A stretch of 63,699 nucleotides of DNA, counting the filler, from Bipalium vagum (Eukaryota), in NCBI GenBank assembly GCA_037834085.1. It is 3 parts of 3 records of this genome, joined end to end, with 100 filler letters (N's around TTAATTAATTAA, not from the genome) between each part and the next. Parts side by side here need not be neighbours in the genome. Positions count along the whole stretch, not along the records: positions 24,092 to 47,383 come from JBBMKC010211261.1; 2 more parts are not named here. One strand, written 5' to 3'. Of the stretch, positions 2,158-51,686 are shown piece after piece (position 1 is the stretch's first letter; the number at the start of each line of letters is the position of its first letter). The notes beneath the pieces were generated by a model that made no database searches, had not been told where the DNA came from, and saw only the letters and a list, made by a program, of their open reading frames with translations. Made by a program: the position numbers and the translations under genes.

Positions 2158-3448
2158 TCAGATAACGAACTAAGTTTTTTTTGTTTTTTCAGCCGTTTAA
2201 ATTTGTTAGCCCCTGGGATTCCCATTTATCTACCGAATTAAATTTTCCTTGTTTTGGTTTGCTGTTTATATATGCGAGTTTCAAATTTACTGTATAATTA
2301 ACGCTATTAATCATTATCCTCTGCAATAGGTGCTCCAAAAGTTCGCTGGACAAATCACAAATTCGAGCAATTATTTATTACGAATGGAAAAATAACACAA
2401 GCACAAATGAAACTGTCTCAAAACTTAACGAGGTGCTTGGTGAAAGAACAATGCAACTGCGAACAGTGCAAAATTGGTTTTAAAAATTCAATTTTTTATT
2501 GGAAGACAAAAATATGTCTGGAAGGCTAAAAGAGTTGGAGGATTATCAAATTATGGACCTTCTTGAACAAAATAGGTCAATTAGTGCTAAACAAGTTAAA
2601 TATATCTGAGTTAAATATAAGCGATACAGACATAAGAAACCGACTGAAATCGTTAGGATTCACTTTTAAACTCGACAAATGGGTTTCCAACCAACTAGCT
2701 GAAAAAAACAAATTGGATCACATTGAAATTTGTTCAAGACTTCTCGAAAGAAACCGAAATGATCCTTTTCTCGACCGGATAGTCACTTGCGTTGAAAAGT
2801 GGATCTATCATGACAACATAACCAGACGAGGATCGTGGTCGTTGAAAGGAGAGCCTCCACAAAAAATTGAAAAACGCAACCTTACACGAAACAAGGTTCT
2901 TTTAAGCATTTGGTGGGATTCTCGTGGAATTATTTATCAGGAGTTTCTCAAATACGGAAAAACCATTAATTCTGATGTCTGTTGTGACATGCTAAGAAGA
3001 GTTCATGCCATTATGAAGGAAAATCGAAGCAGTTTGATAAACCGAAAACAAGTGATTTACCACCAAGATAATGCCAAGCCTCACAAATCAATGAACACAT
3101 TGAAGGTTATTCAGAAATTGAACTGGACTCTAATTGAACATCCACCATATAGTCCCAATATCGCCCCATCCGATTTTTATTTGTTCTGGGTATTACAGAG
3201 TCACTTGATGGGTAAAAATTTTAAGAGTTCCGAAGGTATAAAGAATGAAGTGCTTTCTTTCTTTCATTCAAAAGATCGAGATTTCTTCAATACTGGGATC
3301 GATAAACTTCTAAATAGAAGGGAGGCAGTAATAGAAAAAGATGTGGAATATCTGGATGATTAATTGTTTAATTTTTTATGATTAATAAATTAAATTTAAC
3401 TTCAGTTTAGTTTTTAATTTAAAAACTAAAACTTATTTTGTTAGCTGA
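2158..3448 (+). mobile_element. Full-length but inactive mariner (DD34D) element
   Basis: Imperfect TIRs tcagataacgaactaagtt / aacttattttgttagctga, TA on both sides (2156-57, 3449-50), length 1291 bp. Confidence 0.92.
2330..3363 (+). pseudogene. Mariner transposase pseudogene
   Basis: N-terminus QIRAIIYYEW...TVQNWF* has a stop and a frameshift. ORF 2563-3363 carries IVTCVEKWI (first catalytic D replaced by V), HQDNAKPH and YSPNIAPSDFYLF. Confidence 0.93.
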
Positions 3449-19559: not shown

Positions 19560-21990
19560 TCACTTATTTGCGAAGCCAGTATCGAAAACGATTGATATGA
19601 AATAATAAGGAAGATAAAAGACGAATGTTATAAAACATCTTCATCAAAAGAGACTGGCACCCTGCAAATGGAGACAGAAGAAAATAAGAAGATTCTGACC
19701 AATAATCAAGGATGCTCTACAACTGATTATCAACCAAAATTTGGGCAGAATATGCGTAGCGAGCCCCACCTACAAGAGTCAGACGGCATAAAGCAACAAG
19801 AAAACGAAAGTCCTGCTACTCAAGATAAAACCTTACTAGGAGCAGGAAAATTGGAGCCTCACAAATTTCACTTCAAACCTATATGCATCAATTCAGAAAA
19901 TTCTCAGTCAAATGAAAACAAGAAAGCAGTGATAAAAAATATTCCGATCAAACCGGGTGACACGAAAGGCAGCATTGTGCAATCAAATGAGAACCCAATA
20001 CTTCTAATATTTGTACTAGAAACTTTCAGAAAAAAGAATCGACTACAAATCTAATCTTACTGAGTCTCATAACAGACCTGAATCTAGGAAAAACTACTCT
20101 CACTGAGACAATCGATCAAATAAAAGAACTGGTAAAGAAAAATACCAAAATAATATCTCCCCTTTTGATTCATAAGGAGAAACAACATCCAAACAAGTAC
20201 AAAATTAGAGAGATGTTTAACAAAATCCCAAAGAAAGCATATGAAGAAATTACTGGAAACGTGGTACCTTCATCTTCTCCAAACCGTTTCCAAATCGAGG
20301 AATACTTTGATCACCAATCAAAGGAAATCTCAAACTATGAGTATACCTTTGAACTACCAAACCTAGCAGAATCAAATTCATGCTTACCCATCACCCATGA
20401 AGAGATCGAAATAGTGCTCCTATCAACTCCTATCAACTACATATAGAAAATGAGAGACTACCTAAGATCCGTGGGGATATCACATATGATTACTTAGGTG
20501 TTCCATTCGGGAACAAGAAACGCCAGAATATTGAAAAAATTTTGAATGAAAACATCGAAAATTTCAGTAAAGTCTGCAATTCGAAAATTCTGCCTGCTCA
20601 GAAAATCAAAATTTTGAAAATATTTAAAAAATCAAGGTTACCATTCCACTTGAGAAATCGAATGATTAATATACTATCCCTCTCGTCTCCAAGTGGAAAA
20701 CAGGGTATTAGCAAAATTCAACAAATTGGATATGATGAGAAAATTCTAAAACTTATTAAAGGCATCATCAACATTCCTCTAAAGATGCTTAATAACTCTT
20801 ATCTTTATGCACATCAGAAGCTCGGAGGCCTTGGAATAACTGCTGCAATTGACGAATATATGATCCAGAACATAGTACATGCGTTTTGTATGATGACAAG
20901 TTCTGATGGAAGCTTACGGCACTTAGTAATCGCTGAACTAATAAGCACAACAGAAGTACGTAACAAAGGAAATCAGACTGACATCCACGAGGCGCTAAAG
21001 TGGATCAATGGAAAACAGTATAAGGATGCACGCTCAGCAACATGGTGGTCCAAAGTCCGAAAAGCGAAACAGATATGAAACGAAAATTTGATATTGATGT
21101 AATTTTTAAGCTGGGCGAACAAGGTATCGAAATGGAGATAAGGTCACCAGCCATAGAACCTAGGATGGCTTATTTTGACTTTCGTTCAAAAAATAAAATA
21201 TGTAGTTACTTGCATGAACTTATAGGAATTTAAATATTTTAGGTCGTGGTCTAAATTCAAATCCCAAGGGCAATTAAGTGATGCATTATCGCTCCATCCA
21301 TGGACCAATAAGGTCATTATTCAAGGAAGTCCCCCGGTTCATGATTGGATATTTGCTGTAAAAGCTCGAAACAGTATAATTAAATTAAATTACGCATCAT
21401 ATAAAGTGTTACGTAAGGAAAATGTAAGCTGTAGAAGAGGCTGTAATGCACCTGAAACGCAAACCTGTTCTCTGTCAGTGTATAAAAGAAGGCAGGATTA
21501 AGAGACAAAATAATATTCTACAAGAGCTCATGATAATCCTCAAAAATAAATCATACAATATTGAGATGGACAAAAAATGGCCGGAAAGCAAATTTAATAT
21601 GCGTCCAGATCTGACAATTACGATGACCAAGAAGAAACAAATATTTCTCGTAGACATCAAGTCTCCATATGATAAAATTCCGAACTTCGATAATGCAAGA
21701 TCCTTGAATATCAATAAATATCAAGAACTTCAAAAAGAAATTAATAATTTAACAAAATTTACTGTCTCACTGAATACAATAGTTATCGGCTCTTTGGGAT
21801 CCTGGGATCCAAGGAATAACGAAGTATTAACTAGAATCGGATTAAGCAAATCAGAGGTCCGACAATTTTCAATTAATGCCATTAGAGCTGCAATCAAATC
21901 CTCTTATGATATATATAAAAAACATATATTATAAGTGAATTAAAAACTTATAATTAAATGAGAGGAAAAAAGTCCTTTTAAAAAAAAAGA
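19560..21990 (+). mobile_element. RLE-type (NeSL/R2/R5-like) non-LTR retrotransposon with RT core deleted
   Basis: Pre-RT segment ITHEEIEIVL joined directly to thumb YDYLGVPF, followed by LGGLGI, zinc knuckle CRRGCNAPET and restriction-like endonuclease RPDL...VDIKSPYD...KY...VIGSLGSWDPRN. Stop at 21934, then a short tail with an A-run. Confidence 0.9.
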
Positions 21991-26577: not shown

Positions 26578-27396
26578 TCAACATATATTTAAGGACTTAA
26601 TGATGCAGTTCATGGAATCTATATTATGGAAACATATTTCCAAATCAGATTTATAGTTAATCAAACCAGTTTTTATTGAATCGGAGGCTTCTTCTATATT
26701 TGGGAAATCTATAAAAGAGCCAGAATATAAATCTAAATTATCCAGGCGATAAAAAGAAGTTGACATAATTAAAGTATCCAAGTTTTTTAGCATCCTTAAT
26801 TGGTTTACAGCTTGGTTAATTTCCGGATTGTAACATGATGAGGAATTCGACTTCAATTTATTTAGAGCTGTGGACAATGCGCAGAATGCATTGAAATCCA
26901 GTTTATGATTTAGACTTTCATCGTATGCAAATTTCCACAAACTTTCTTCCAAATATTCTAATGCTCGCTCCCCTTCGAGTTTGTATTTTTGATTTATTTC
27001 TATTTTTTCATACTCAGTAAGAAGTTGAGTTGTTATTTCCTTTATTTTCCCATAAGAATTCTTCAAATTATTGATATTTTTTGTGCACTTCTCTAAACTA
27101 TCCAATATAAAATTACTGTACACCATGAGGATATTTTTAATTTTTTGAGGCAAAAGTTTTTCATGATACGTACTGAGTTCCAAAACTTTCTGTATTTCAT
27201 TGTTTCCATTACATTCATAAATACAACCTGAACTAATATTATCAATAGGACATTTGCTATAATCTTCAAGCATTTGTTCCAAGCAATACTGGCAAAACGA
27301 ATGATATTTATAACATTGAGAAAAGCCATATTGAGTACCTAAAAAACCTTCAAAACATATTGTACAGTAATTATTTATTTGAGTTAAATTATCCAT
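26578..27396 (-). CDS. Intronless RING-finger protein (C3HC3D type), putative E3 ligase
   Basis: Uninterrupted 272-aa ORF; C-x2-C-x13-C-x3-H-x2-C-x2-C-x10-C-x2-D at the N-terminus, then helical/coiled-coil-like sequence. Confidence 0.8.
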   Translation of the reverse strand: MDNLTQINNYCTICFEGFLGTQYGFSQCYKYHSFCQYCLEQMLEDYSKCPIDNISSGCIYECNGNNEIQKVLELSTYHEKLLPQKIKNILMVYSNFILDSLEKCTKNINNLKNSYGKIKEITTQLLTEYEKIEINQKYKLEGERALEYLEESLWKFAYDESLNHKLDFNAFCALSTALNKLKSNSSSCYNPEINQAVNQLRMLKNLDTLIMSTSFYRLDNLDLYSGSFIDFPNIEEASDSIKTGLINYKSDLEICFHNIDSMNCIIKSLNIC

Positions 27397-28758
27397 TTCT
27401 TTGAGTAATTATTTTAATTAATTATTTAATGTTAAACAAATTTTATTTTTTATATTAATTTGAATTTAATATTTTTTTGAATAGAAAATTAAATTTTAAT
27501 AAAATATTTTAAAATAAAAATCAGAATATAATTAAAATTTTGAAGTTAATAAATAATTATATATAATCAAATTTTAAATATTGATTTCATTTCGTGAATA
27601 ATTATATAAAATTGTTAATAATCAATATTATGGTTTTATGAACAAAAAAAATATATTTTATTAAAAAATATTTTTAAGAAATCAGTAATGGATCAAAAAA
27701 TCTCAAATAATTTAATATGTATCAGATTTTTGATAAGATTTATCACATTTTCCATTAAACAAATTTAAAGATACATTACCTTCAAAATAAAAATAACAGG
27801 TTAACAAAAAATAATTCTTAAAAAAAACTTTAACAAAATCTTTGAAATCATAATTTTTAAAATATTATTTAATATTCTTTAAATTTTAAATTTTATTATT
27901 AAATTTTTTTATTTACTAAAAGTTTTTAAAATGTATTATTTGAATATAATTTTTATAAGAATTTTTAAAATAATCATTAAATGTATTTAATATATTTTTA
28001 TAAATTTAAAATTTATTATGGTTAAATTAATTTTTCATATTTTTGAATTTTGAAATTGAATTTTATTATTAAATTTTTAAATTTATTTTGCCAAATAAAA
28101 TTTTTGATTATTTTTTGTTAAATTTTGAAATGATTGTCTTTTAAAAATTGTATTTTATTTTACCTATAAAAATAGTGTCAAAATTATCTTCTTATATTAA
28201 AAATTTAAGAAAATTTTTATTTTATTTTAGACAGGTTTTGTGAAAAAAAATCAATGTTTTTTAATACAAACAAGTAATTTCAGTTTTAAATTCTAAATTA
28301 AATTAATTTTAAAATTATTTAATTATTGGTTTTAAAGGTTTTTATATTCGATTTCATATAATGGGGTAAAGCAAATATTTTTAAAAATTATTTATTACAA
28401 AGACAACATTAATCATTTTCATTCATAATATTTAGAGTTTTGCACTTTTATTAGGTCAAAATGTGAGGTTAATTTAAATGATTTTATTTATTATTTTATC
28501 TATTAAAAGTTTAATTATTTTATAGCCAATGTTAATCTTAGTTAAACAATTTTGAGTTTTTATTTTATTTTTTTTAATTTCTTTTTTAAAGTTCAGACCG
28601 AATTAAATTTTTGTGAAGCATCATGTCTAGTTTTCAACTCACTTTGGTTAGATAAAATACTTGATCAGATGCAATGGGTTAATAAAATTTGTCATCAATG
28701 GGTTAAGAAAAATGTTATATATTTTCCTTTAAAAAATTTAACAGAATTACTTTAAAAG

Positions 28759-29216
28759 ATGGACAAGAATATCATTAATTTAATCAGCAGATCCTGTGAA
28801 GATGCCGTATCATTTTTGAGACAAATTGGACTATTAGCAGTCGTCGGTATGAATAAACTTTTGTTATAATTTATTAAGTTATTGTTTTAGATAATTATGA
28901 TTCTTTTGGGAAAGAGTTGAAGCAATCTCCATCAATACAAAATAACGATGGAATTTCTTGGCGTTGTGTGAATGTTAAATGTCAATATTACACGCGCTAC
29001 TTTTCAATTAGGAGAAAATATTTTTGTTCAATATTCAAAATATCGCTCAACAAAATTATACATTTAATGTATTACTGGAGAATGAAGAGACCCGAAAAGG
29101 ATGCAATTCAATATATGGTACAGAAGTCTTACCTGGTCGAATGGACTTGAAGGCAAAATTTTCTAAAGACAGATCCAAATACCATATTTGATTTATTAAA
29201 TAAATTTGAATATTAA
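28759..29216 (+). mobile_element. Merlin (ISXO2-like) deletion derivative with an intron
   Basis: Exon 28759-28846, GT-AG intron 28847-28890, then DGISWRC..C..SIR...ISL..IIHLMYYW fused to C-terminal SYLVEWT*R; DDE core absent. Confidence 0.75.
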
Positions 29217-30166: not shown

Positions 30167-30284
30167 ATATAATAATTGTTTATAGATATTTTAAAAAGTG
30201 AAAAAATAGATAAGAAAATGTTGTACACAACACAAAAAGCATAAAACTGAAATGTGTAAATAAATAGTTTTTAAAATGTAAATA

Positions 30285-30520
30285 TCAGGTTGTGAGGAAT
30301 GAAATTTGTAAAATGAAAAACAAAGTTTATTAATAAATTATAAATAAAAGAAACTATTGATTTATACTTTATCAGATTAAAATGATATTTTCAAACAAGA
30401 CAGATATATATAATTTACCAACGCAAAAAACAGAATGGTAAAATATCAAGCAGATAACAAATAAACAACAATTAAAGTTGGCAATTTCATTACCCACAAA
30501 TTTCATACTACACAACCTGA
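30285..30520. mobile_element. Mariner-type MITE (236 bp)
   Basis: TIRs tcaggttgtgaggaatgaaatttgt / acaaatttcatactacacaacctga, flanked by TA. Confidence 0.85.
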
Positions 30521-31123
30521 TATTTGCTTTTTAATAATTGGTTATTAATTAAATAATTTTATAAAATGTAATGTTAATTAGATTCAATTTATTTTTGATA
30601 AATTAAGGGCGAAAAAATTATGAAAATATCACAACTCGATTTATAGTTCTATATTAATAACTCTTTTGAACACTTGTAAAGTACAAATAATTAATCATAA
30701 ATAATATTATAATTATAGGAAAAATATTAAATATATAGAAACATATATTAATTACATAAGTTTGTACTTTTTATTAAACTAGGTGTGATCAAATGTCTAA
30801 TTAAATAGAGTTCAAATCACTAAGTACAGTAGGAAAAGTAAATAAATAAAAACTCAATTAATAGCACTGAGGAAGAAAAATTATTTATACAAATAATCTA
30901 CAGTAATTTTATACGTAATTGTAAAATAATATAATATAATAATCTCTTCATATACTTTAATTCATGAGTATCCATCATACTGTCTGAGGAAAAACATTTA
31001 TAAATAAAAATATCTAAATTTTTAGTAATGACAAACAAATAAATCAGCAGGCTTAAAAAACTAAACAATCTTGTATTGCACGTTTAAAAATATTTATAAC
31101 TTTTAAAAATATAATCATTATTT

Positions 31124-34100
31124 TTAAGCAGTCTTCAATAATTTTGATGCTTGTTGATTTGCACTTCTGATGCGTTCTTCGTTGTTAACGGCCTGAAAAG
31201 AGAAATAAATATTGAAATAAATACTTATGAAAAATCAAGAACTTTTAATAATATGTGACAATTATTAATAAACATGATGAAGCAATTATTTTGAGAATAG
31301 TAAATTAATTGTTAATTATTCTTTTTTTCAGAACTTGAATTTTTATTCATTAAAATATATTGAATAAATTGTTGCGATTCATCCTATTAAAGAGGGTAAT
31401 AATAATAAATAATAATAATAATAATAATCTAAATTCACAATATGAATAAAAATGTAATAATAAGAGATTAATTATTAAAAATTATTAATAAAATAAAAAT
31501 TATTTTCCTTTTGCAGTAGCTAGCTGCTAATGGGATTTGTCTGTTGAAACCAGCTATTAGATTTGAAGTCAAATAAGAACCAGTTCATATTATATTATAT
31601 TAATAAAATAATTATTAATTAAAATAATTATCTTAGAACATGATTTCAAAAGGCTTGTTATCAATGTTTAAGATATTTTATTTATTAATACTTGATAGCA
31701 AAAAAAATTATTCAAATTTTTGATAAACACAATAACTAGTAAAATCATTAAACGATAGTAATCAAAATATCAATATTGATTTTAAAAATATTATTATTTA
31801 TTATTTATTATATATATTAATAGTATTAACAGTCTCTATTCTCATTGATATTTCTAGTATCTCTTAAATATATTTAAATTAAATAATTGACAAAAGAACA
31901 TTTACAAATTCTTTCTAGTGAACATACATAATTCATAAAAATAATAAAACAAACTTAACAGTTTTTATAACATTTAATGACAATAAGATATTTTAATAAT
32001 GATAAATAATTGGGAATGTACAATTAATTATTAGTTATTTTCAATTTGAAACAGAGTAATTTCCTATCATAAATATTATTATAGGATCATTCTTGAAAAA
32101 TAGTATGAGACTATCTATTTTACAACAGTCTGTGCTTTCAACAATTCAACATTTCATATACTGGCTACAAAAAGGAATTTCGTACGATGCAGCTGGGAAA
32201 TGTTCATCTGTTATATCAGCTGTGTTAAGTGAGGTTATCATGAAACATTTTTCATGATAATTCAGCTTCATCCTTAAAGAGTTCCTCAGATATGAAATAT
32301 TAACATTTTCCAATGGCTAGGAAATTCTCCGGATTTGAACCCCATTGAGAACTTTTGGGAATTTATTAAACGGGAACTAAATATATGCTAACAAATTAGA
32401 ATCAACTTATTTAAAGTTGAATCAAGTGATTCAAAGAAATTGAAAGAAAACGTCAAATTATATATTAATACTATGCCCAATAATATCATGTCCAATCGAC
32501 TTAAGGTTCTGATAGATCCAAAAGACGGTGTAAAGAATTTTTAAGAAATCATTAAATATTTATTTTTTGTCTTAATTACTGTTAACTTTTTATACAAGTA
32601 GTTACTAAATTTATTATATTTAATATATTCAGACCATTTTTGTGGTTTTAAGATGTCAATTTAACTAGCATTGAGGTGTCCCCAATAATTTGGCAGCATC
32701 GTGAATAAAAAGTTTGTTATTTATTAAAGTTAACAGCAAAAAATCTTGGTTGAGAAGAGAAGTTACATTAGCTAATTATCATTTCGATTGATATTTTTGA
32801 TAATTTTGTGTTTTTTAATTCATTACTGTAACGTTCTATATCTTACACATATTCTTAGGAATAGCAGATAAATATTTTATTTCGGTTTACATAAAATAAT
32901 TATGAGTACTAGTAATATAACAAAATATTATCTCAACACAAGAATAAAATAAGAAAAAGAAATAATATAAAATGTTTACGTCACAATTTAAGTTGCATTT
33001 AGTCTGAAAATTATGAAAAAGCTTAGTCTGAAATTTATTTTTTCGGAATTATCTTGATTTAACTGTTGCATTTTCTGACGACCAGAAGATGTTCTCCTGT
33101 GAACTTACGAGCACATCCAGTACACCAGTCGACACAAGGGATCGAGAAATATTCATCATGTAGCTGGCGGCCCCAATGCGATGACCGGCAACGCCGCTAT
33201 GATGATAACACAAAGTCTGGTACCAATACCAAAGAGATTTCCTATTTCTTAGACAAAGGAACATAAACTTTTGAGAACTCTGATTTTAATAATCCTGCCT
33301 GGCTGTAGTCTAAGGTATGAATGCTGGAAATCTCACGGACTATCAGGTGATATGCTAGAGGTCTTGTCAGCTCACAAGAGACTGGCTCCAAGAAGCATCA
33401 ACATTTCAAGAAACTTATAAATGAGACAGTTAAATCAAATTTCAACAATTTTCTTTGTCATTACAATTTTTTATCTTTAATAATCAAAAATTAATAAATA
33501 ATAACTTTTTAAAATTGTTTTATAATATCATATTTATATTTTTAAAGGTCACGAGAAAAACTTTATTAATAATTTCTCTATTTTATTGCGATGACAGAAT
33601 CTCCATTCATATGTATAATATAATGGATAATAAAGTAGATTTCAGAGAAATTTGAAGTTTTCTAAGATGTTAGTTACAAATAACGTTATTATGTTATTTT
33701 TAAAAATTTATTTCTAAACTCCAAAGACAGAAATTCATACTATTAAAATCTTTAGACAATTTTTGGTGATCTTGGCAAGCAAACCGATCCAAGACATTTT
33801 GTTCATGTGACTTCTTATGTTCCATAATTATTTTCTCACACAAGCAACATGATGTAGACCAATGTCGCTGTATTTGTAAGCATATTAATAAAATATAAAA
33901 GGTTTTTGCTCTACAAACATAATTAGCAATAATTACCATACTAATTAAAGTTAATTATCAACCGTGGAAAAGCCATCTTATTTCTGAGAAGTAACATCCG
34001 ACTTTGTTTACTTGGAACTATTAAATGAATCGTTGAGTGTGAGCATTGTATTGCTTGTGTCTACAGAATTGTCGCTTTTATGCTGGACAGTGTCTTGTAT

Positions 34101-37100
34101 AAAAAAGTATAGTCAAACTTCATAAAGACCTCATTATTCGGTCTTGAATTGAGATACTAATGTATGAAGGATATATCAAGGTAAAGGATATTTATCAGAA
34201 AATATATTTTGGGAGACTTCAATATAAACATGAAATGAAATAAATGGTATTTTCGGCGTTTCAATTTTATATCTTGATTTAAAAGCATTGGTCTAAACAT
34301 TCACAGAATGCCTGTTTAATTATTTCATAAAGAGAAATAATTATCATTGTTAAACATAAAGGATTCTTAGAGAAACCTTTCCCAAGATCTTAACCAATTG
34401 GTTTTGGTTACGAAGCATCTTTAAGAAGACAGTATTTTAAGTGTTTAAGAAAAAAAATTTGAAATAAGTCTTAAAAAAAAGTAAAATATTTTATATATCC
34501 TCCTTTCTTCAAAATATTTTTATTATGTAATTTAGCATTGCAAATTGAATCTGATAAATAACAAAAGGTTACGAAAGATTAAGAAAAGTCTTTCATATTC
34601 GTTTAACTGAAAGCAAAGGATTATATGTATGGAATTTATTCTTGAGAATAAAGTCAACTATTGTCAAATCTGTTCAACTATCTATTAGAAAACAACAGAA
34701 TCTTTTCTTGACATAAGACTGCTCTTTAATGTAAAGAGATTGAGCAACAATTAATGTATGTATTCCACGAAGTTTGGAATCAAAGATGTATCCTAAGAAA
34801 TTATTTCGTAATAAACAAACGTCTCATATTTCTCTAATCGCTCAACATTGACCTCTTATCAAAGCAAATTTATCAAAAAATTACATTGGGGTTTGGGGGT
34901 TGATATATCACTTATTACAATTCGTTTCTTAAAAAGGTATGGATATTGGGAAAGCTCAATTACATATATCGAATTCCTCAGTTGCCAGTTAATTAGTTCT
35001 AGTAAACATTGTCCATTTTGTATTGCTTCTTTAATAAGTATCAAGTTTCGCAGACACCATTTGTTTGTATGATATAGTTTTTCAAGGGTTTTGAAGGTTA
35101 CAATATCAAAAGATGGTCAAGTAATGAGGTCTTTGTCTTGATTGAACTCACTATTTTGATTTTTTTAAAGGTCGTGATGATAATGACATCAAACCTTTAG
35201 CTTTCCATATATTTTGTAATTTATCGACAGAATTTTGAAACTTTTCAATACATAATAAAAATTAATACAAAAAATTAAAAATTAATACAAAAAATTAAGA
35301 ATTAAGAAAAAATTAAGTACCCAATCAAATCAAAATTCAAATGTTTGTTGAAAAATTATTTTTCTTAGTTTTAAAAATTATCATCATACATCAAACCGTA
35401 AGGTTCAACAAAATACATGACTTAAATGATGAAAACCATAACATTTTGTAATTTCTCAATTAACGATAAAGTTTGTTAATATTTACAAAGCAGTAATCAT
35501 TATGTAAAGCGCTGCAGGGTGGATGGATAAATAAGGAGCCATTGTCGACATTTAATACTGTTATCTTCATTTGTGATTAATTTTTTTCATGATGCAAATT
35601 TAATAAATGTTTTAATATCTTTTAATTTTTTTATTTAACTTTAAATCAGTTAGAAAAGAATGTAAGTATAAACAAGCATAAATTTTCGTAGAAAATAATA
35701 CAAAACTTATTTAATTGAATATTAAAACAAAATTTAATAAATAAATGTTTTTAAAAATATTATGTCAATATTAGGCGATATAAAGTTTCAGTCGTATTTA
35801 AAGTAAAAATCAAAAAAAATTCTTAAAACATAAAATTTATTGTATCAAATATGTTCATTTTGTTCGGTAGCCTTTCGCCATTTATCTTGTAAATTCAAAA
35901 TGCCATTCCTTTATAATTTCTGAGATTTTTGATCAATAAACTCTACAATGTACTTTTCACTATTCTTCTCTTGAAAATATTGGAACTCCATTAAGAAAAT
36001 TCTGCACAGACAAAAACAAATGGTGGTGCATAGATGCTATGATTGAACAAAAAGCTGAGTGCAAGAGAACTACCAATTTTCTTTCATTTTTTCAGTCATT
36101 AAAGATGTTTGTGGTCAAGCGTTGTCGTGGTGGAACACAACACCCTTGGGGCAATTCAGACATGCTTTTTTCATGTTACTGACAATAGAATATAGAATCA
36201 ATTGTTTGACCAGTTTTCAGAACCTCATAATGTACAATTCCTTTGAAATTAGATTTTTCCTCAAGACAATATTTGCTTTGCAATTGTTTGAAGAGGTTTT
36301 TTGGACCACGATCTTTTTCTCATATTATTATAATGCATAATCTACTTTTCATTTCCGCTGATAATATTTTAAAAATGGTTCAAGTTTATTTCTTTTCAAT
36401 AAAGATTCACAATATAAATTCCTTTCAGACACTTAAATATCAAGGTTTTTCAAATGAGTTGAAACAGTTTGTTGACAAACCTTTATCAATGTCATAACTG
36501 CCCAAACCCGATGTATGTTTTGGATCATTATCATGTTGAGATATAAAATTAGCAAGAAGCTCTTGTTTAGCAGTTAATCTTAAAAGATTTTCTGATAGAA
36601 TTCTTTTACATTGAAATATATTCATGATTCGATAATATTCAAAGATCCAATTCCCATAGATGACACGCATCTCCAAATCATTTATGATCACCATTCAAAT
36701 TAAGCAATGAGAATAATATATTGTCTTTTGAGCCTAGATTTACGAGGACATCAACATCTCTGTCGACCATCAGAGGAAAACGTACTTGTTTTAATCTCAT
36801 CATTGAACAATATCCTATCTCAATACATAGACGTCCACAAACTCCATTTGGTTGCTAAATCCAATCGATTTTGCATATTCCTTCCTGAATGGAGAGATAT
36901 TTTAATGGAACACAGCTCGAAAAACCAATATCTTTTATAATATTTTGAATTTTCACATTAGCAACCATTTTGTTTTACTCTCTATATAAATTTCTTGCCA
37001 ATTTGCTTGCTGAAATCATTGGGTTTTCTTTTGTTTTTTCTAATAAAAACTTTTCTTCTTCATCATCTAAATCTTTTTTCCGACCATATCATTTATTTCT

Positions 37101-40100
37101 CATTACAATACCAAATTTCTTGTGTTTTTTAATACTATCTTGGACTGTTGATTTAGGTACTCCGGTTTTCTACTATTTTACGAAAAATAAATGTCCTTTT
37201 TGACAGACGAACAATTTCAAATCTTATAGTTAATTTTTATTCCTCCATATTTATTAATTGAATTGATTAAAATTATTTTAAATAAAGATTTTATATTGGT
37301 TTAAAATTTTACCTGTTCAGAAATCATTTTCCGTTAATATTTTAAAATATACATTTTTGAATTTTAATTCTTAGGTGAAATTAAATCACATCGTTAGATT
37401 ATTACTAGAACAGGACTGAGTTAACTATATACATATACTAATAATTTTGAGCTGATATTTTCAGAGAGATTTAATATTCATGGCTTGTCTGGTATTTTAA
37501 TTCCCTATATTTTTATTGCCTGAAATTCAAATTCAAAACCGATTATGACGAAAACTATGGAAATATTTTAGGTGACCTTAATATTTGAATAAAATTAAAA
37601 TTATATTTTTTCATTTTCTTACTTTTATACTATCAAAAATTGGTTTTTATTCAAATAATTTTATTATCCATTTATGTTTTGAGATATAATAAATTGTTCT
37701 GATAAATAAAAAACATTCAAGAGTATTTTAATTTGTTTCACTATAATCAAAATTCTTAAAAATATCCCTGGCCAAATTTAGAATATTAATCTAAAATGCT
37801 TTCATTAAAGAAATTATTTTATCATATGAATAAATGAAAGTCATTCTTTTCAGTACACTTAAATAATGATTTGGAAAAGGCTAAACAATTTTATTAGCAT
37901 TTAGCAAAGAAAATATTTTCTGTTAACGCTGCAAAGTAAAAAATATTCACAGATAATTTGAAAAAAATAGAATAAAATATAAATTAATTTATTATTATTA
38001 TCAAATGCATTATGTTACGAAGTTCTTAAAAGCCTCAAATCAGTCATCAAAAACTTGTCAATAAAATTTTGAATAATAAAAAAAATTAAAAAAAAGAATT
38101 CTCTTAAAAATATTCACTTTGTACGAGACATTTAATTAATGCTCATTAAATTATTAAGAGGTCTTAAGACTTTATTTTACTGATTTTCATTCAAATGCTC
38201 AAATTTTGATTTGAACTAATAAAAACAAGAAAAAATATTCCTCTCTAACGGTTCTTAAAAGAAAACAAAGCAGAAAGAAAAATATTATGAAAATATTACC
38301 GTCAAAAAGGGCATGAAAATTGTAACGAAATAAAATTATTCAATTCAATTAGACAATTGATTAATAACATTTTTCTGATTACGTGAATCTGTGAGGAAAT
38401 ATAACATCCACTTCGGTGAACTTAAAAGGTGATAATTAAAAATAAACAAATAGAAAATCAGAATCATTCAACCGAAGCATCTAACAGGCATTAATCCTAT
38501 CCCACACATCGCAGGTTTTCAACTAGAGGCAGATTTTTATTCACTTGAAAGGAAATCGGGTTGGGTAATAAATCACTGATTATTTTCAGTAGTGATTAAT
38601 ACACTTACTTTTCTATTTATTCTGTCAATTTGATGGTTTTGTTGAGCTATAGAGCTACCCATATCTATTGCCATGTTTTTTAGATTGCTTACCATACCTG
38701 ACACTTCAGTAATATTTTGATCCATCTCATCCTCTCGGGCATCATTTGTAATTCTATAAAAACATCAGTCTAATTAAACAGAAATGATATGAGATGAATA
38801 TATTTATTACCAGTATTATTTTAAAAAAATATTTTATTATCGTTATAATATTTTTCAATAAAAATAATATTATTATTACTATTACTGCTAATACTACTAA
38901 TAGTAATACAAAACAAATTAAAAATATTATATAATATTAGTATTAAAATTTAAAAGATCTCACATTACGTTATTTTTATTTAGAATTAAATTATATTCGA
39001 GTTTAATGAGATTTATTTCATAAAAATAACAATTTTCTAATCAAAATTAAAACAACAAATATCTTATAAATAAATCAAACCATGTTTTAAATATACCACC
39101 TCCACGTAAAATGTTGATAAATAAGGAAAATAATGAATTTTAGTGTAAATATATATATTAGGTCTACAAGTTGAAAAGGTGTCTATTTTAAATATTATTA
39201 TACACAAAAAAGATTGATAAATAAATATATATTTATGCAAGATATAACTACAATTTTATTTATGAAATAATCTTCATTGTTCTCGATGCATTTTAACTAT
39301 TCTTCAGGTTGCTCGCTGTTTCCAATCTGGAAAAAAGATTTTGCGATTTTGGAATCATTTACTATGCATGTACAAGTATATAAACTGGTTCACTCAAAAT
39401 TAACCTACCATTTTAATTTTTTTATTGAAATAAATGGATTTTTGAAAATTTTTTTATATAAAATAAAAATGCGGAATTTTAAATAAATGAAAATCTTGTT
39501 CATAGAAGACCGCGTATTTCTTGTAAAGCTGTAATACTACTGTCTATCATTTGTCAAAAAATTCCTTTACAAATTTGAGGCCGATGAGACGTTCCTGAAC
39601 AATATCTGGTAGAGCGATTTGTCAATTTTTTTTATTCATGCCTTACCAAACAGGCAAAATAGTCGCTGTTAGACTGAAGGCAAATGTAATGTGCCAACAA
39701 TTGAGATACCTCGGTATCTTCCATCAATAATGATTTTTACCAAATTCAATAATCGCTACGTTATTGAACCATTTTTTCTTTGAGGAAAACGGAAATACTG
39801 TATCAGTAAATTGTGCCAGATATCGAAATGTGCCAGTTAAAGAAAAAACGATCTTAGTGCAGAATTGAGCTCCTTCCCACACTGCTATTGCCACAAGAAC
39901 CCTGCTTACCTCCAAGTTCTTAATAACCGAATCGATAGACAAGGATTCCCAATGGGATGGCCTGCTGCCCTGATCTCACACTAAGTGATTTCTGGCTGTG
40001 AAAAGCTGTGAAGGAGGACATGTATGCTGATTCTTGTTACTTACTCGTTTGTTTGAAATGAAACAGAAAATCAAAGAGGCATTTGAAAATATTTAAACTG

Positions 40101-43100
40101 AAAATCTACCTTCTGTGATTCTGAATGTTATAAAGAGAATGACTTTTTATGTTGATGTTAGCGTTTTGGATGTAAACCAAGTTTAGCAGTATATAGTGGA
40201 GATTCATTCGAGGAAAACCACTACATTTTTCGTTTGGGATTCTCATATAAGATCTATTTTTCGTCTAATGCGATGACATGTATTCATTCGATTAGCTTTA
40301 ATGCCTTCGGGCAGTTTATGAAGTACCTAAACATTTACTTTGCCACCCTGGCACAAATGATCTTGAATGATATTTAAACCGGCAATGTTTATGAATCAAT
40401 TCAATTTATAAATTTGTAATGAAAATAAAATAATAAACATAATAATTTGAATAAAAATAATAACAAACCATTTTAATAAAGAAAGTTTGAATATTTAATC
40501 ATAAAAACGTGATTTCATTCTATTTTTCATCAGAAATTTAAAATAAACACCTTTCCGAAGCAATATTGAAATCTCTTTCACATTGTAAAAATAATGATTT
40601 ATAGTAAAAACAAAGAAACTGTAAAATTATTTTTAAAAATTTTAATATTCTCAAAAAATACTTCGTAATATATCCTCCTTGAACACCCATTCCATTCTGA
40701 TCTATCACAATCCTAGGCCCGTCGGCATTGTTTTTATTGTCATCCTCTTTCTTCCACGTTTTATCATAATCCTCGCGTTTCACTCTAACAATTTTTTTTA
40801 AATAATTCGTTTTAATTTTCATAAATTATTCTTTTAAAAAATGGAATCAAAGAATATTTTACTTATTCCAAGGTAAAATACATAGACCACAACACTTGTT
40901 TAAGTCCTCGAGATTCTTTTCAGCGTCCTTCATATCTTGATTGATTTTGTCCATACCTTCGTCAATTCTATCGAGTTGCTCTATTTAATAAAAAAAACAA
41001 GTGAGAACAATATACCATATTTAGAAGCTGGATGGGTTTTTGTTATTAGGCTCATGCCAGTGAATTCTCATTTATTTTTAAGAACTTAAGAATTTAAATG
41101 AAGAATATATCAATTTTGTAATTATTATTTTTGATAAAACTTTACGAGTTTAAGTTTAGAAAAATGCTAAAATTTTCAGAGGTATTTAAAACCAGTAAGA
41201 ATGAAACTGAAAATAAATTCAAGATTTATATTATTTATATAAATAAAGTAAATATTTTAAAAATAATAAGTAAAGTAATTATTGTTTATTATTTAGCAAA
41301 ATAAAATAAGGTATATTATTTTCAAATCAATAATGGTTAAAAAAAATTTGTGTGTTCTTATAATCCTGGCATTAAGGAGATAGATTAATAAAATTGAGAC
41401 ATTTCACCGAGAATATTAATTATTTAAGCTCTTGGATAATTCCAGGCCTATTCTCAAATGAATATCGTAATGTATACAGATGTAATTAGCGACGTTGTAT
41501 TGTTGAGATATTCTTTTTTGGATAATCTCGATATTTTATTAACGTTCATACTTGAGCGAAAGATTTTCGATCAAATTAGTATGGCTTAAAGTAAACCTTA
41601 CTGCGTTTTATAATAAACAACAATGAATTCGTTTGGTTAATATAAGTAATTAATAATTTAAATTTGTGCCGCACGAAAATCCATTTTAAAATTACAACAT
41701 TTGAACAACTAAAACATATTGCACATTAAATAACATAAATTGATTTTAATAAAGAATATATATTTATTTGATGTTACAGGGAAATCTCGTTAATTAGAAA
41801 CGAGTGGTACTGAAAAGTCTAAAGAATTATCCAAATTTTGAATTAACTGACAAACAATAAATTAATAGGATGTCTGTTGAGACTTACAACCGATTTCGAA
41901 TGAAGAAAGTTTGCGAATTAACGAAGTTTCACTGTACTAAACGCATTTAAGAAATTTTAAAAAGTTCACAGAAAGCCTTTATTTAAGTACATTTTTGTTG
42001 TCAAATTAATTTTTTTAACAAGAAATTCGTGGCAAAGTGATGAAAATATGGAATAAGTAAAACCTTTTGAAAGATCTTAATACAACCAATAATATATATC
42101 ATGCTGTGAATATTCACTAATAGTGGAATTAAAAAAATATATTAATATGTTTAGTTCAAGTTTCTCTTCATGCTGCTCATAACTTTAACTACACATTTAA
42201 CTTTTATAAGGCAATATAATACATTTTCAAATATTTTGATAAACATATATATTGAATATTGAGTAACACGACTGGTAAGAAAATAATTTGCATTAAGAAT
42301 TTTGTTATTAAAGTATGTATCAAGATTTTCTATATAATTTTCCATAATATAAAACATTGGTGGACGAGAGTCAATGAATTCCTAGAAGGATAGTTTTACG
42401 ATTATGTTGCTGAAAAATTGTAGTCAGTGGGGACTATGTCTGCAGGTGATTAAGAGGTTCCAATTCCAATCCCTTCAGGTTTGTCAGTCATTTGTGCAAT
42501 GTGCGGTATATCGTTATCATCCAATAAGATGGAAGTTGATATGTTTGACTAATCTAGAGTGATTTACGTTTTTCACTATTTTGCCTAATAAATTACTCAT
42601 AATTCATAAGAACTCTGAGACGGATTAGCCTTAACGGTCATCTTTAATTCATCATTACGAACCTTTGATTTGGGATGACAGCGTGATTCATTTGCGAGGT
42701 CAAAACTGTAAGAAATTTGGTGAACCATTTTGATATTGTCTGCTGTATAGTATTTCTGCAGTCAAATACACCATAAATGTTTCGGACGATCGGTATTACC
42801 GTTGTACCGTGTAAAAAAACTCCATAATGAAGAGCATTTCAGAAATACCCATTTTAAATAAAATTGGTAAATTAGAACAATTAATTAATATTTTTTAAAC
42901 TTACAAAGATTACTTGAAACAAGAGAAATATGTAAATTATCCACAAAAAATGAATAGTAAAAGATTAAGATAATGTAAAATAATCAATTATTATAGTGGT
43001 GAATATTAGCTACAAATTTCATGCTTGATAACCCAATATTCATATTTATAAGAGATTTTCTGGATTTGAGATTTAATGAGAATATTCGATAACCGAATAA

Positions 43101-50916: not shown

Positions 50917-51686
50917 CAGGGTTTATAACCTCATTTCAAATTTTTGTAATTCAATTTCAAATTTTTGTAATCTCACATCAAATACATATTTTCTCAGCTA
51001 CATTCTTTAATTAAACTAATAAGACTAATTTATTATTTGCAGTTGATGAGGTAGGCTTCAATATATCCATGCGCTCAAGAAAAGGAAGATCATTATGTGG
51101 AAAAAGAGAAATTCATGTTGTACGTGGATTGCGGTCCCGTAACATCTCCGTCTGTTGCGCAATGAATAAAAATGGAATTGTCCATTATCATGCACAGACG
51201 ACTGCATATAACACGATTATATTTCAGGCGTTTAACACCGAATTAATAGCAAAAGATTTAATTCGAGAACATGGATCTGGGGTAATCCATTCCACAAATC
51301 GACAGTCATACGTGAAATGGTAGAAGAAGGGGGTCATAGGATATTATTTTTGCCTCCTTATTCTCCGTTTCTAAATCCTATTGAGAACTTATTCTCCAAA
51401 TGGAAACAAAGCATTAGACAAGCTCGTCCTGAAAATGAAAAAGATTTATTAGGATTGATCGACAACGTAGGAAATTTAATGGGCGCTGATGACTGTAATT
51501 CTTATTAAATTCTTATTAATTCTTATTTAAATTACTAACAAAATGTGTTAATAAGGAGCCCATCTATGATGATTAAATGTTTATATGTAAATATATGTAA
51601 TACATTTTCTTATTTTTATTTATTTTTGAAATTTATTTATTTTTGAAATTGATTTACAAAAATTTGAAATGAGGTTATAAACACTG
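50917..51686 (+). mobile_element. IS630/Tc1 DDE deletion derivative with intact TIRs
   Basis: ~45-bp TIRs cag(g/t)gtttataacctcatttcaaatttttgtaa with TA flanks; VDEVGFN and FLPPYSPFLNPIENLFSKWK present, second-D region deleted. Confidence 0.92.

Follow-up and report, generated by a model that had tools for sequence, protein, structure and literature searches.

What is the compact inverted-repeat element in the last intron of the SNAP-25 gene of the Bipalium vagum assembly, and does its likeness to a hammerhead ribozyme reflect a self-cleaving RNA? The locus sits in a window of 63,699 nucleotides, by which we mean the whole stretch of DNA analysed, filler included, with an overall GC content of 26%. 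SNAP-25 occupies the minus strand with seven coding exons, one of which matches solved SNAP-25 chains at E 1.5e-15. Its last intron, the sixth between coding exons, spans 31193-38608 on that strand with GT..AG boundaries, confirming the location given by an initial annotation of this DNA. That annotation described, at 33054..33438, a multibranched RNA-like structure closed by a hammerhead-like junction, and proposed a decayed copy of a ribozyme-bearing retroelement or a new non-coding RNA. The element belongs to a dispersed family of non-coding repeats. We consider it probable, though well short of certain, that it is a MITE-like DNA transposon of the non-autonomous, cut-and-paste kind, which likely arrived by insertion into the SNAP-25 intron.

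A dispersed family of relatives

Relatives of the element were seen through the contigs of one sequencing run, probably the source of the window, and are known via 30-letter consensus lines with an agreement of 0.48-0.71. With a likeness cut of 80%, 196 of 1,835,864 contig records align to 32700-33800. Summed depth, which does not equal copy number, reaches 774 and 664 over the left end and 2255 over the right end. Depth in the flanks is that of single-copy DNA, mostly 19-25, with one AT-only bin of up to 247 (chance level). The element itself is a single unit, and no further copies of it were found within the window. Both ends recur, in unchanged order, on many contigs, and among the 15 of 28 joints listed, nine connect the left end with the right end within a single contig, three link the left end to the interior, two link the interior to the right end, and one runs backwards. 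These shared ends uphold the initial proposal insofar as the locus holds a copy of a mobile family that is non-coding and dispersed.

The interior is a different matter. Two blocks are common to some relatives, one at 33202..33274 with about 77-82% identity and one at 33329-33365; their summed depth is 104-273, with up to 304 in the first of them, against a single-copy depth of 19. The SNAP-25 intron copy has no close interior sibling, depth being 19 at both 33107-33180 and 33292-33328. Behind 33093, the loose consensus of 12 contigs matches the intron copy at 18 of 30 positions (ungapped, by hand), and the interiors are thus homologous but far diverged. In one relative only 27 letters separate 33081 from 33337, so that it resembles a derivative with an internal deletion. 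Overall, the interior likeness of relatives is about 60-82%, whereas reported end matches mostly lie at 90-99%. In a simulation that left out two contigs taken as the SNAP-25 intron locus itself, the observed identity classes (1, 20, 42 and 10, of 73) fit a true end identity of 0.8-0.9, depending on aligner settings. Detection bias therefore makes the contrast between ends and interior a moderate one, yet does not explain it away. It may represent an old family viewed through that bias, or possibly selection acting on the ends via repeated transposition.

Flanks differ between copies, with a consensus agreement of 0.48 behind the right end. On both sides, the flank consensus is a run of A followed by T, as expected from a palindromic target preference. 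When 20 bases from the right end were used to scan metagenomes, a single match came back, with no left arm within three mismatches, and this was judged to be chance.

Extent and architecture of the ends

Contig ends and the consensus letters of relatives put the limits of the element at 33045 and 33447, making it larger than initially drawn. At 403 bp, it is about 17 bp shorter than its relatives, and no open reading frame crosses it. At the left, a 9-bp motif on the plus strand (33045..33053) lies outside the inverted repeat and starts with GG. It derives from contig consensus: 12 contigs start at 33050, and their loose consensus places GG in register with 33045-46, with a chance level of 0.044 for a plurality of G at each site. 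At the right, the corresponding 9-bp motif on the minus strand (33439..33447) was defined from two contig sets. Relatives end there in C or T and then C, whereas the last base of the SNAP-25 intron copy is A. The C at 33447 comes separately from 25 contigs ending at 33446 and 16 ending at 33445, with chances of a C plurality of 0.016 and 0.027, respectively. Three separate contig sets thus place both termini, GG at 33045 and C at 33447, 9 bp outward of a 13-bp repeat. The outer segments are conserved within each end and are not inverted copies of one another: in the intron copy only 2/9 positions match between the ends, compared with 20/29 for the whole 29-bp end.

Inside these segments lies the sub-terminal inverted repeat, with its left arm at 33054..33073 (plus strand) and its right arm at 33419..33438 (minus strand), the latter under all 75 contigs aligned to 33385-33444. 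The arms match at 18 of 20 positions, as 13 perfect base pairs (33054-66/33426-38), two mismatches and a 5-bp extension. Perfect 13-bp inverted repeats less than 500 nt apart are common in the window, with 60 overlapping 13-mer pairs in about two dozen places. Further inward, a degenerate inverted repeat pairs 33093..33130 (plus strand) with 33337..33381 (minus strand), the right arm overlapping the shared block at 33329-33365. Its score is 30, against 13.7 ± 2.6 in shuffles of the chosen windows; when whole halves are searched, 3.4% of 500 shuffles reach it (p 0.034). A candidate composite repeat would comprise an outer 20 bp and an inner, degenerate 30-38 bp. Of 52 direct-repeat families, the 20 largest include no tandem array internal to the element.

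Local palindromes adjoin the terminal repeats. The hairpin at 33069..33091 (plus strand), with pair probabilities above 0.99, holds CTGACGA in its arm and loop; one relative has the same arms with a different and longer loop. A TTCT..AGAA palindrome with a variable spacer occurs at both ends (33072-33088, and in the right sub-terminal region of relatives), and these palindromes are candidate transposase binding sites.

Flanking the termini, we note a candidate 8-bp target-site duplication at 33037..33044 and 33448..33455 (both plus strand), matching at 6/8 positions. A direct repeat of this quality is expected by chance at 0.017 for 8 bp and 0.044 with free length, and at a length of 9 bp the match is 5/9. 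The duplication in the intron copy is thus possible, but imperfect and weak (6/8, p 0.02-0.04). Between these flanks, which have 23% GC, the interior of the element stands at 45%. Adjoining on the left, 32985-33033 contains a direct repeat of 11 bp, its copies 24 nt apart, and has a loose likeness to the left end of the element, which may be chance. One contig joins 33093 backward to 32919.

Several transposon identities were rejected on the basis of these ends. Zator, Harbinger and Sola1 are superfamilies with 3-4 bp duplications, and the flanks of the intron copy match at only 1/3 and 2/4 at those lengths. A solo LTR bounded by TG..CA at 33055/33437 would not account for conservation beyond those positions, by 9-10 bp on either side, and a 4-6 bp duplication next to them is lacking.

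Folding of the element

The motifs that had prompted a hammerhead reading are present: the 13-bp stem with its 5-bp extension, CTGACGA at 33075-81, GAAA at 33410-13, and, within the putative insert, a 9-bp helix (33234-42/33326-34) and a 7-bp helix. The junction built from them is nonetheless not the predicted fold, since a constrained hammerhead lies 7.4 kcal/mol above the ensemble. C3-U4-G5 of the proposed core is paired with a probability above 0.99 in the local hairpin at 33069-91, so that CUGANGA is present at 33075-81 but is not single-stranded in a core. In the ensemble, pairs of the proposed stem II have probabilities of at most 0.001 and those of inner stem I at most 0.005. Although the 9-bp interior helix forms with a probability of 0.99, the third arm that had been drawn (33362-67/33374-79) has a pairing probability of 0.0. 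The 10.1-11.1 pair is imperfect, as the initial annotation had recognised: C33082 faces A33409, leaving no closing base pair for stem II. At the cleavage site, the stem I pair is U-U (U33418 facing U33074), and the proposed stem III consists of A-U with a 2-nt loop.

An excess of folding was found for the whole element on the plus strand, and that part of the initial expectation stands. Its z score is -3.41, and -3.59 in a repeat run in which 0/60 shuffles folded as well; on the minus strand it is -1.8. Removal of the 13-bp terminal repeat reduces the plus-strand value to -1.5, and the excess is attributable to the terminal inverted repeat. Without the termini there is none, and the expectation fails for the interior. 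The region 33094-33400 has a z score of -0.64 on the plus strand (13/60 shuffles as good) and -0.56 on the minus strand, and six sub-region and strand combinations within it range from -1.43 to +0.36. It contains four Watson-Crick stems of at least 7 bp; the shuffled expectation is 2.1, and 17% of 200 shuffles have at least as many.

These results bear on the possibility of a multi-copy family of structured non-coding RNA genes, with a terminal domain under selection in each copy, which we regard as quite improbable. Such a family would fit a GC-rich interior in a 26% GC genome, ends that are better kept than the interior, and the lack of a close sibling. The two shared interior blocks pair together through the 9-bp helix (p 0.99), and the two variants recorded within it are still able to pair, as G-U, on the plus strand; two wobble-compatible transitions are, however, often expected by chance. 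The inner inverted repeat has one G-U, three A-C and two other mismatches; A-C thus outnumbers G-U on the plus strand, which indicates no bias toward pairing of a plus-strand RNA. Against the same reading, the interior z score is not significant on either strand, the T4 run at 33071-74 would halt RNA polymerase III on the plus strand, and Rfam holds no match. The Rfam comparison suggested at the outset, covering RNase P/MRP, SRP and snoRNA, gave zero hits at gathering score; four hits below it, with E 2.9-5.4, were taken as chance, and ARAGORN found no tRNA genes. With no interior folding excess, and relatives that match mainly at MITE-like termini, neither a hammerhead-bearing retroelement nor a structured non-coding RNA is borne out as first proposed. 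Both observations largely match outcomes that the initial annotation had named as refuting its proposal; of a third, a target-site duplication across copies, there is a glimpse in the intron copy (6/8).

Two related identities were also set aside. For RNase P/MRP, a AAAGUCUG ... CGGACUA pair is present, but it is nested, Rfam is blank, and its spacing is too short, the RNase P/MRP consensus spacing being longer. A SINE transcribed by RNA polymerase III is contradicted by the internal T4 run on the plus strand and by the lack of any tRNA found.

A likely deletion near the right end and the hammerhead reading

The GAAA at 33410-13 had been taken as part of a hammerhead core, and the alignment of 75 contigs to the right end (33385-33444) does not sustain this. 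Summed depth is 2142 across the plateau at 33417-38, 1150 at 33411-12 and 203 at 33409-10, meaning that only about 9% of it extends to the G of GAAA and that the word is not shared in register. The consensus before 33403 (3 contigs), 33411 (11) and 33412 (17) fits 33390-33412 only with a shift of 17 nt, after which hand alignment gives 17/23, 8/13 and 9/13 matches in the sets of 3, 11 and 17 contigs. This shift in three contig sets implies that relatives have about 17 extra AT-rich bases here. On sequence comparison, GAAA is likely, and most simply, the junction of one deletion of 17 nt, private to the SNAP-25 intron copy and placed by the shifted consensus at 33407..33413 (plus strand). Consequently, the hammerhead look of this copy likely stems largely from that deletion.

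Might intact members of the family nonetheless carry a hammerhead? Under this alternative, the family would be a hammerhead-bearing non-autonomous retroelement copied by a Penelope-type reverse transcriptase, and intact copies would use their own GAAA within the 17 bases, with predicted cleavage near 33417-19. We consider this very unlikely. CUGA is retained among relatives, many of which also possess a GAAA word of their own upstream. Within the extra bases of the largest set (16-17 contigs), an AGAAAA word lies 11-12 nt upstream of 33412 and could close a stem III of 2-4 bp. The G of the upstream word is, however, the consensus in only two of four contig sets (17 and 4 contigs), being A in the 11-contig set and T in the 3-contig set, and by hand alignment it sits within the arm of a local palindrome. 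Conserved blocks do cover the 5′ half of the core along with stem I: of the 13 left-end joints among those listed, eight get to 33081 or farther, four of them stopping exactly there, but the other five end before 33080. The plus strand also folds better than the minus strand. Set against this are the U-U pair at the cleavage site, the lack of a stem II pair beside the core in either the intron copy or the consensus, the 7.4 kcal/mol cost in the intron copy, and the absence of a tandem copy in the window and of an Rfam match. A working hammerhead in intact members, with the whole 330-nt body as stem II and the terminal inverted repeat as stem I, seems to us less likely still, as does its corollary that the intron copy lost a catalytic GAAA in the 17-bp deletion. 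A small chance is retained for the family-level reading because the consensus lines near GAAA are weak (agreement 0.58-0.71) and open to smearing by indels.

Known metazoan hammerheads offer a further comparison, made here with excerpts of the sources. Minimal hammerheads in Penelope repeats have a helix II hairpin of 7-8 bp and may lack helix III (PMC4209133, excerpt), and metazoan retrozymes are tandem repeats (PMC7229834, excerpt). As these excerpts present them, known metazoan motifs have a short helix II hairpin and lie in tandem repeats or pLTRs (PMC4209133, PMC7229834), which speaks against a hammerhead here. The intron copy shares with them the word order of stem, CUGANGA, GAAA, UH and stem, and its size and GC content are in the range of retrozymes. 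It differs from them in having no hairpin helix II and no tandem array, with GAAA out of register and the fold disfavoured. As a single unit, it also lacks the tandem repeats of 150-450 bp that define non-LTR retrozymes.

Possible affinities with known transposons

Having returned to a cut-and-paste DNA transposon as the preferred reading, we can ask which superfamily it resembles, bearing in mind that the likenesses below are drawn from descriptions in excerpted sources. Repbase groups non-autonomous elements by duplication length and by terminal alignment to known families (PMC4455052, excerpt). A Mutator/Phantom-like sub-TIR type is our leading candidate, although we would put it at somewhat less than an even chance. 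Tm1 of root-knot nematodes, a Mutator/Foldback element of the Phantom subclass, carries composite inverted repeats with asymmetric motifs of 7 bp on their outer side, along with duplications of 8-10 bp, and other Mutator-like elements have similar sub-TIRs (PMC3169594, excerpt). More generally, MULE duplications measure 8-11 bp, and the MULEs listed for Platyhelminthes include Phantom (PMC6446971, excerpt including Table 1). Our element is like Tm1 in its short asymmetric outer motifs, non-coding content and dispersal, the composite repeats and the 8-10 bp duplication being only candidates here. It differs in that its outer motifs are 9 bp rather than 7 bp and unrelated in sequence, and the tandem array of the 14-bp motif C of Tm1 is not seen in it.

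Merlin is the runner-up, possible but appreciably less likely than Mutator. Merlin elements have a terminal 5′-GG, TIRs of 24-462 bp and duplications of 8-9 bp, and Merlin1_SM is named for Schmidtea mediterranea (PMC8101967, excerpt). The element may resemble them in its 5′-GG on the left and, in relatives, G(G/A) on the right, its inverted repeat of about 29 bp and its candidate 8-bp duplication. Unlike Merlin as described there, its outer 9 bp are largely not inverted. Some other DDE transposon has only a slender chance. The element most likely works like a sub-TIR MITE, with Mutator and Merlin as candidate superfamilies.

Outside the DDE transposons, a non-autonomous Helentron of the HINE/DINE-1 kind, moving by rolling-circle transposition, is an improbable source. 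The element shares its 13-bp sub-terminal inverted repeats, T-rich surroundings and divergent interiors with HINE/DINE-1 Helentrons, whose subTIRs are 12-15 bp long and can be common to HINE families that are less than 70% identical over the rest of their sequence (PMC4067079, excerpt). The spacing differs, though: a HINE has one subTIR 2-4 nt inside its 5′ terminus and the other 38-60 nt inside its 3′ terminus, followed by a palindrome (PMC4067079, same excerpt), whereas the present repeats sit symmetrically, each 9 nt from its terminus, which is also where conservation ends. The element is also without a conserved 3′ stem-loop, and the sequence past its right repeat allows no more than a weak, AT-only hairpin.

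A tyrosine-recombinase element, either Crypton-like or a non-autonomous DIRS-like form, is also most doubtful. In such an element, the 13-bp arms and a short spacer would make up the site on a circular intermediate, and 13-bp arms with a conserved outer segment of 8-9 bp do resemble a recombinase site. Together, however, the conserved outer segments of both ends give an 18-bp spacer, and this is too long for tyrosine-recombinase sites. No internal complementary region was seen. Cryptons are defined by terminal direct repeats of 5-6 bp (PMC3212892, excerpt), while the end segments here differ and show no such repeat.

Proposed mobility and significance

How might such an element have moved? We propose that a DDE transposase from an autonomous partner would bind the inverted repeats and adjacent palindromes and cut at the G-starting termini. 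Insertion would then target AT-rich DNA, through a cut staggered by about 8-9 bp. The SNAP-25 intron copy likely lost 17 bp near its right end, as well as its terminal C, at a later point, and is probably immobile. The predicted RNA rod of the intronic pre-mRNA would be a side effect of nested inverted repeats in the DNA.

If a non-autonomous DNA transposon is the correct reading, the locus adds one more such family in a poorly annotated genome, with mild use for classifying sub-TIR Mutator-like elements. It also warns that a local deletion can give an inverted-repeat element the look of a hammerhead. Were a hammerhead instead to operate in intact copies, which is unlikely, the family would combine DNA-transposon-like ends with a self-cleaving RNA junction, a new topology that would tie RNA self-cleavage to TIR-bounded elements. 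Our literature search found no description of a hammerhead inside a TIR element. In the literature listed on hammerheads in planarians, it likewise found no description of this family, Repbase lying outside the search.

Other elements in the window

Other repeats and reading frames occur in the window. A second MITE-like element at 30259-30546 has inverted arms of 51 bp with 82% identity, and an interior piece at 42876-43040 is 70% alike to it. At 54210-54627, an inverted pair of 61 bp with 80% identity, with G runs preceding both ends, is likely another small DNA transposon.

On the plus strand, a 90-codon open frame at 28878-29147 resembles the N-terminal part of Merlin transposases. Considered as a possible partner of the element, it was not confirmed: Pfam gave only a weak zinc-finger match and a protein search gave none. 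Downstream of SNAP-25, on the minus strand, an uninterrupted frame of 276 codons (26578-27408) encodes a RING finger at its N-terminus (just under the Pfam cut-off, E 1.3e-5) and then a probable coiled coil. A broken non-LTR retroelement at 19596-21934 (plus strand), which we take to be of the R2/NeSL type, has a C-terminal endonuclease-like region and was not named by Pfam. Remnants of Mariner/Tc1-type transposases lie at 2530-3363, 51236-51508 and several other places, two of them confirmed by Pfam Transposase_1 or DDE_3.
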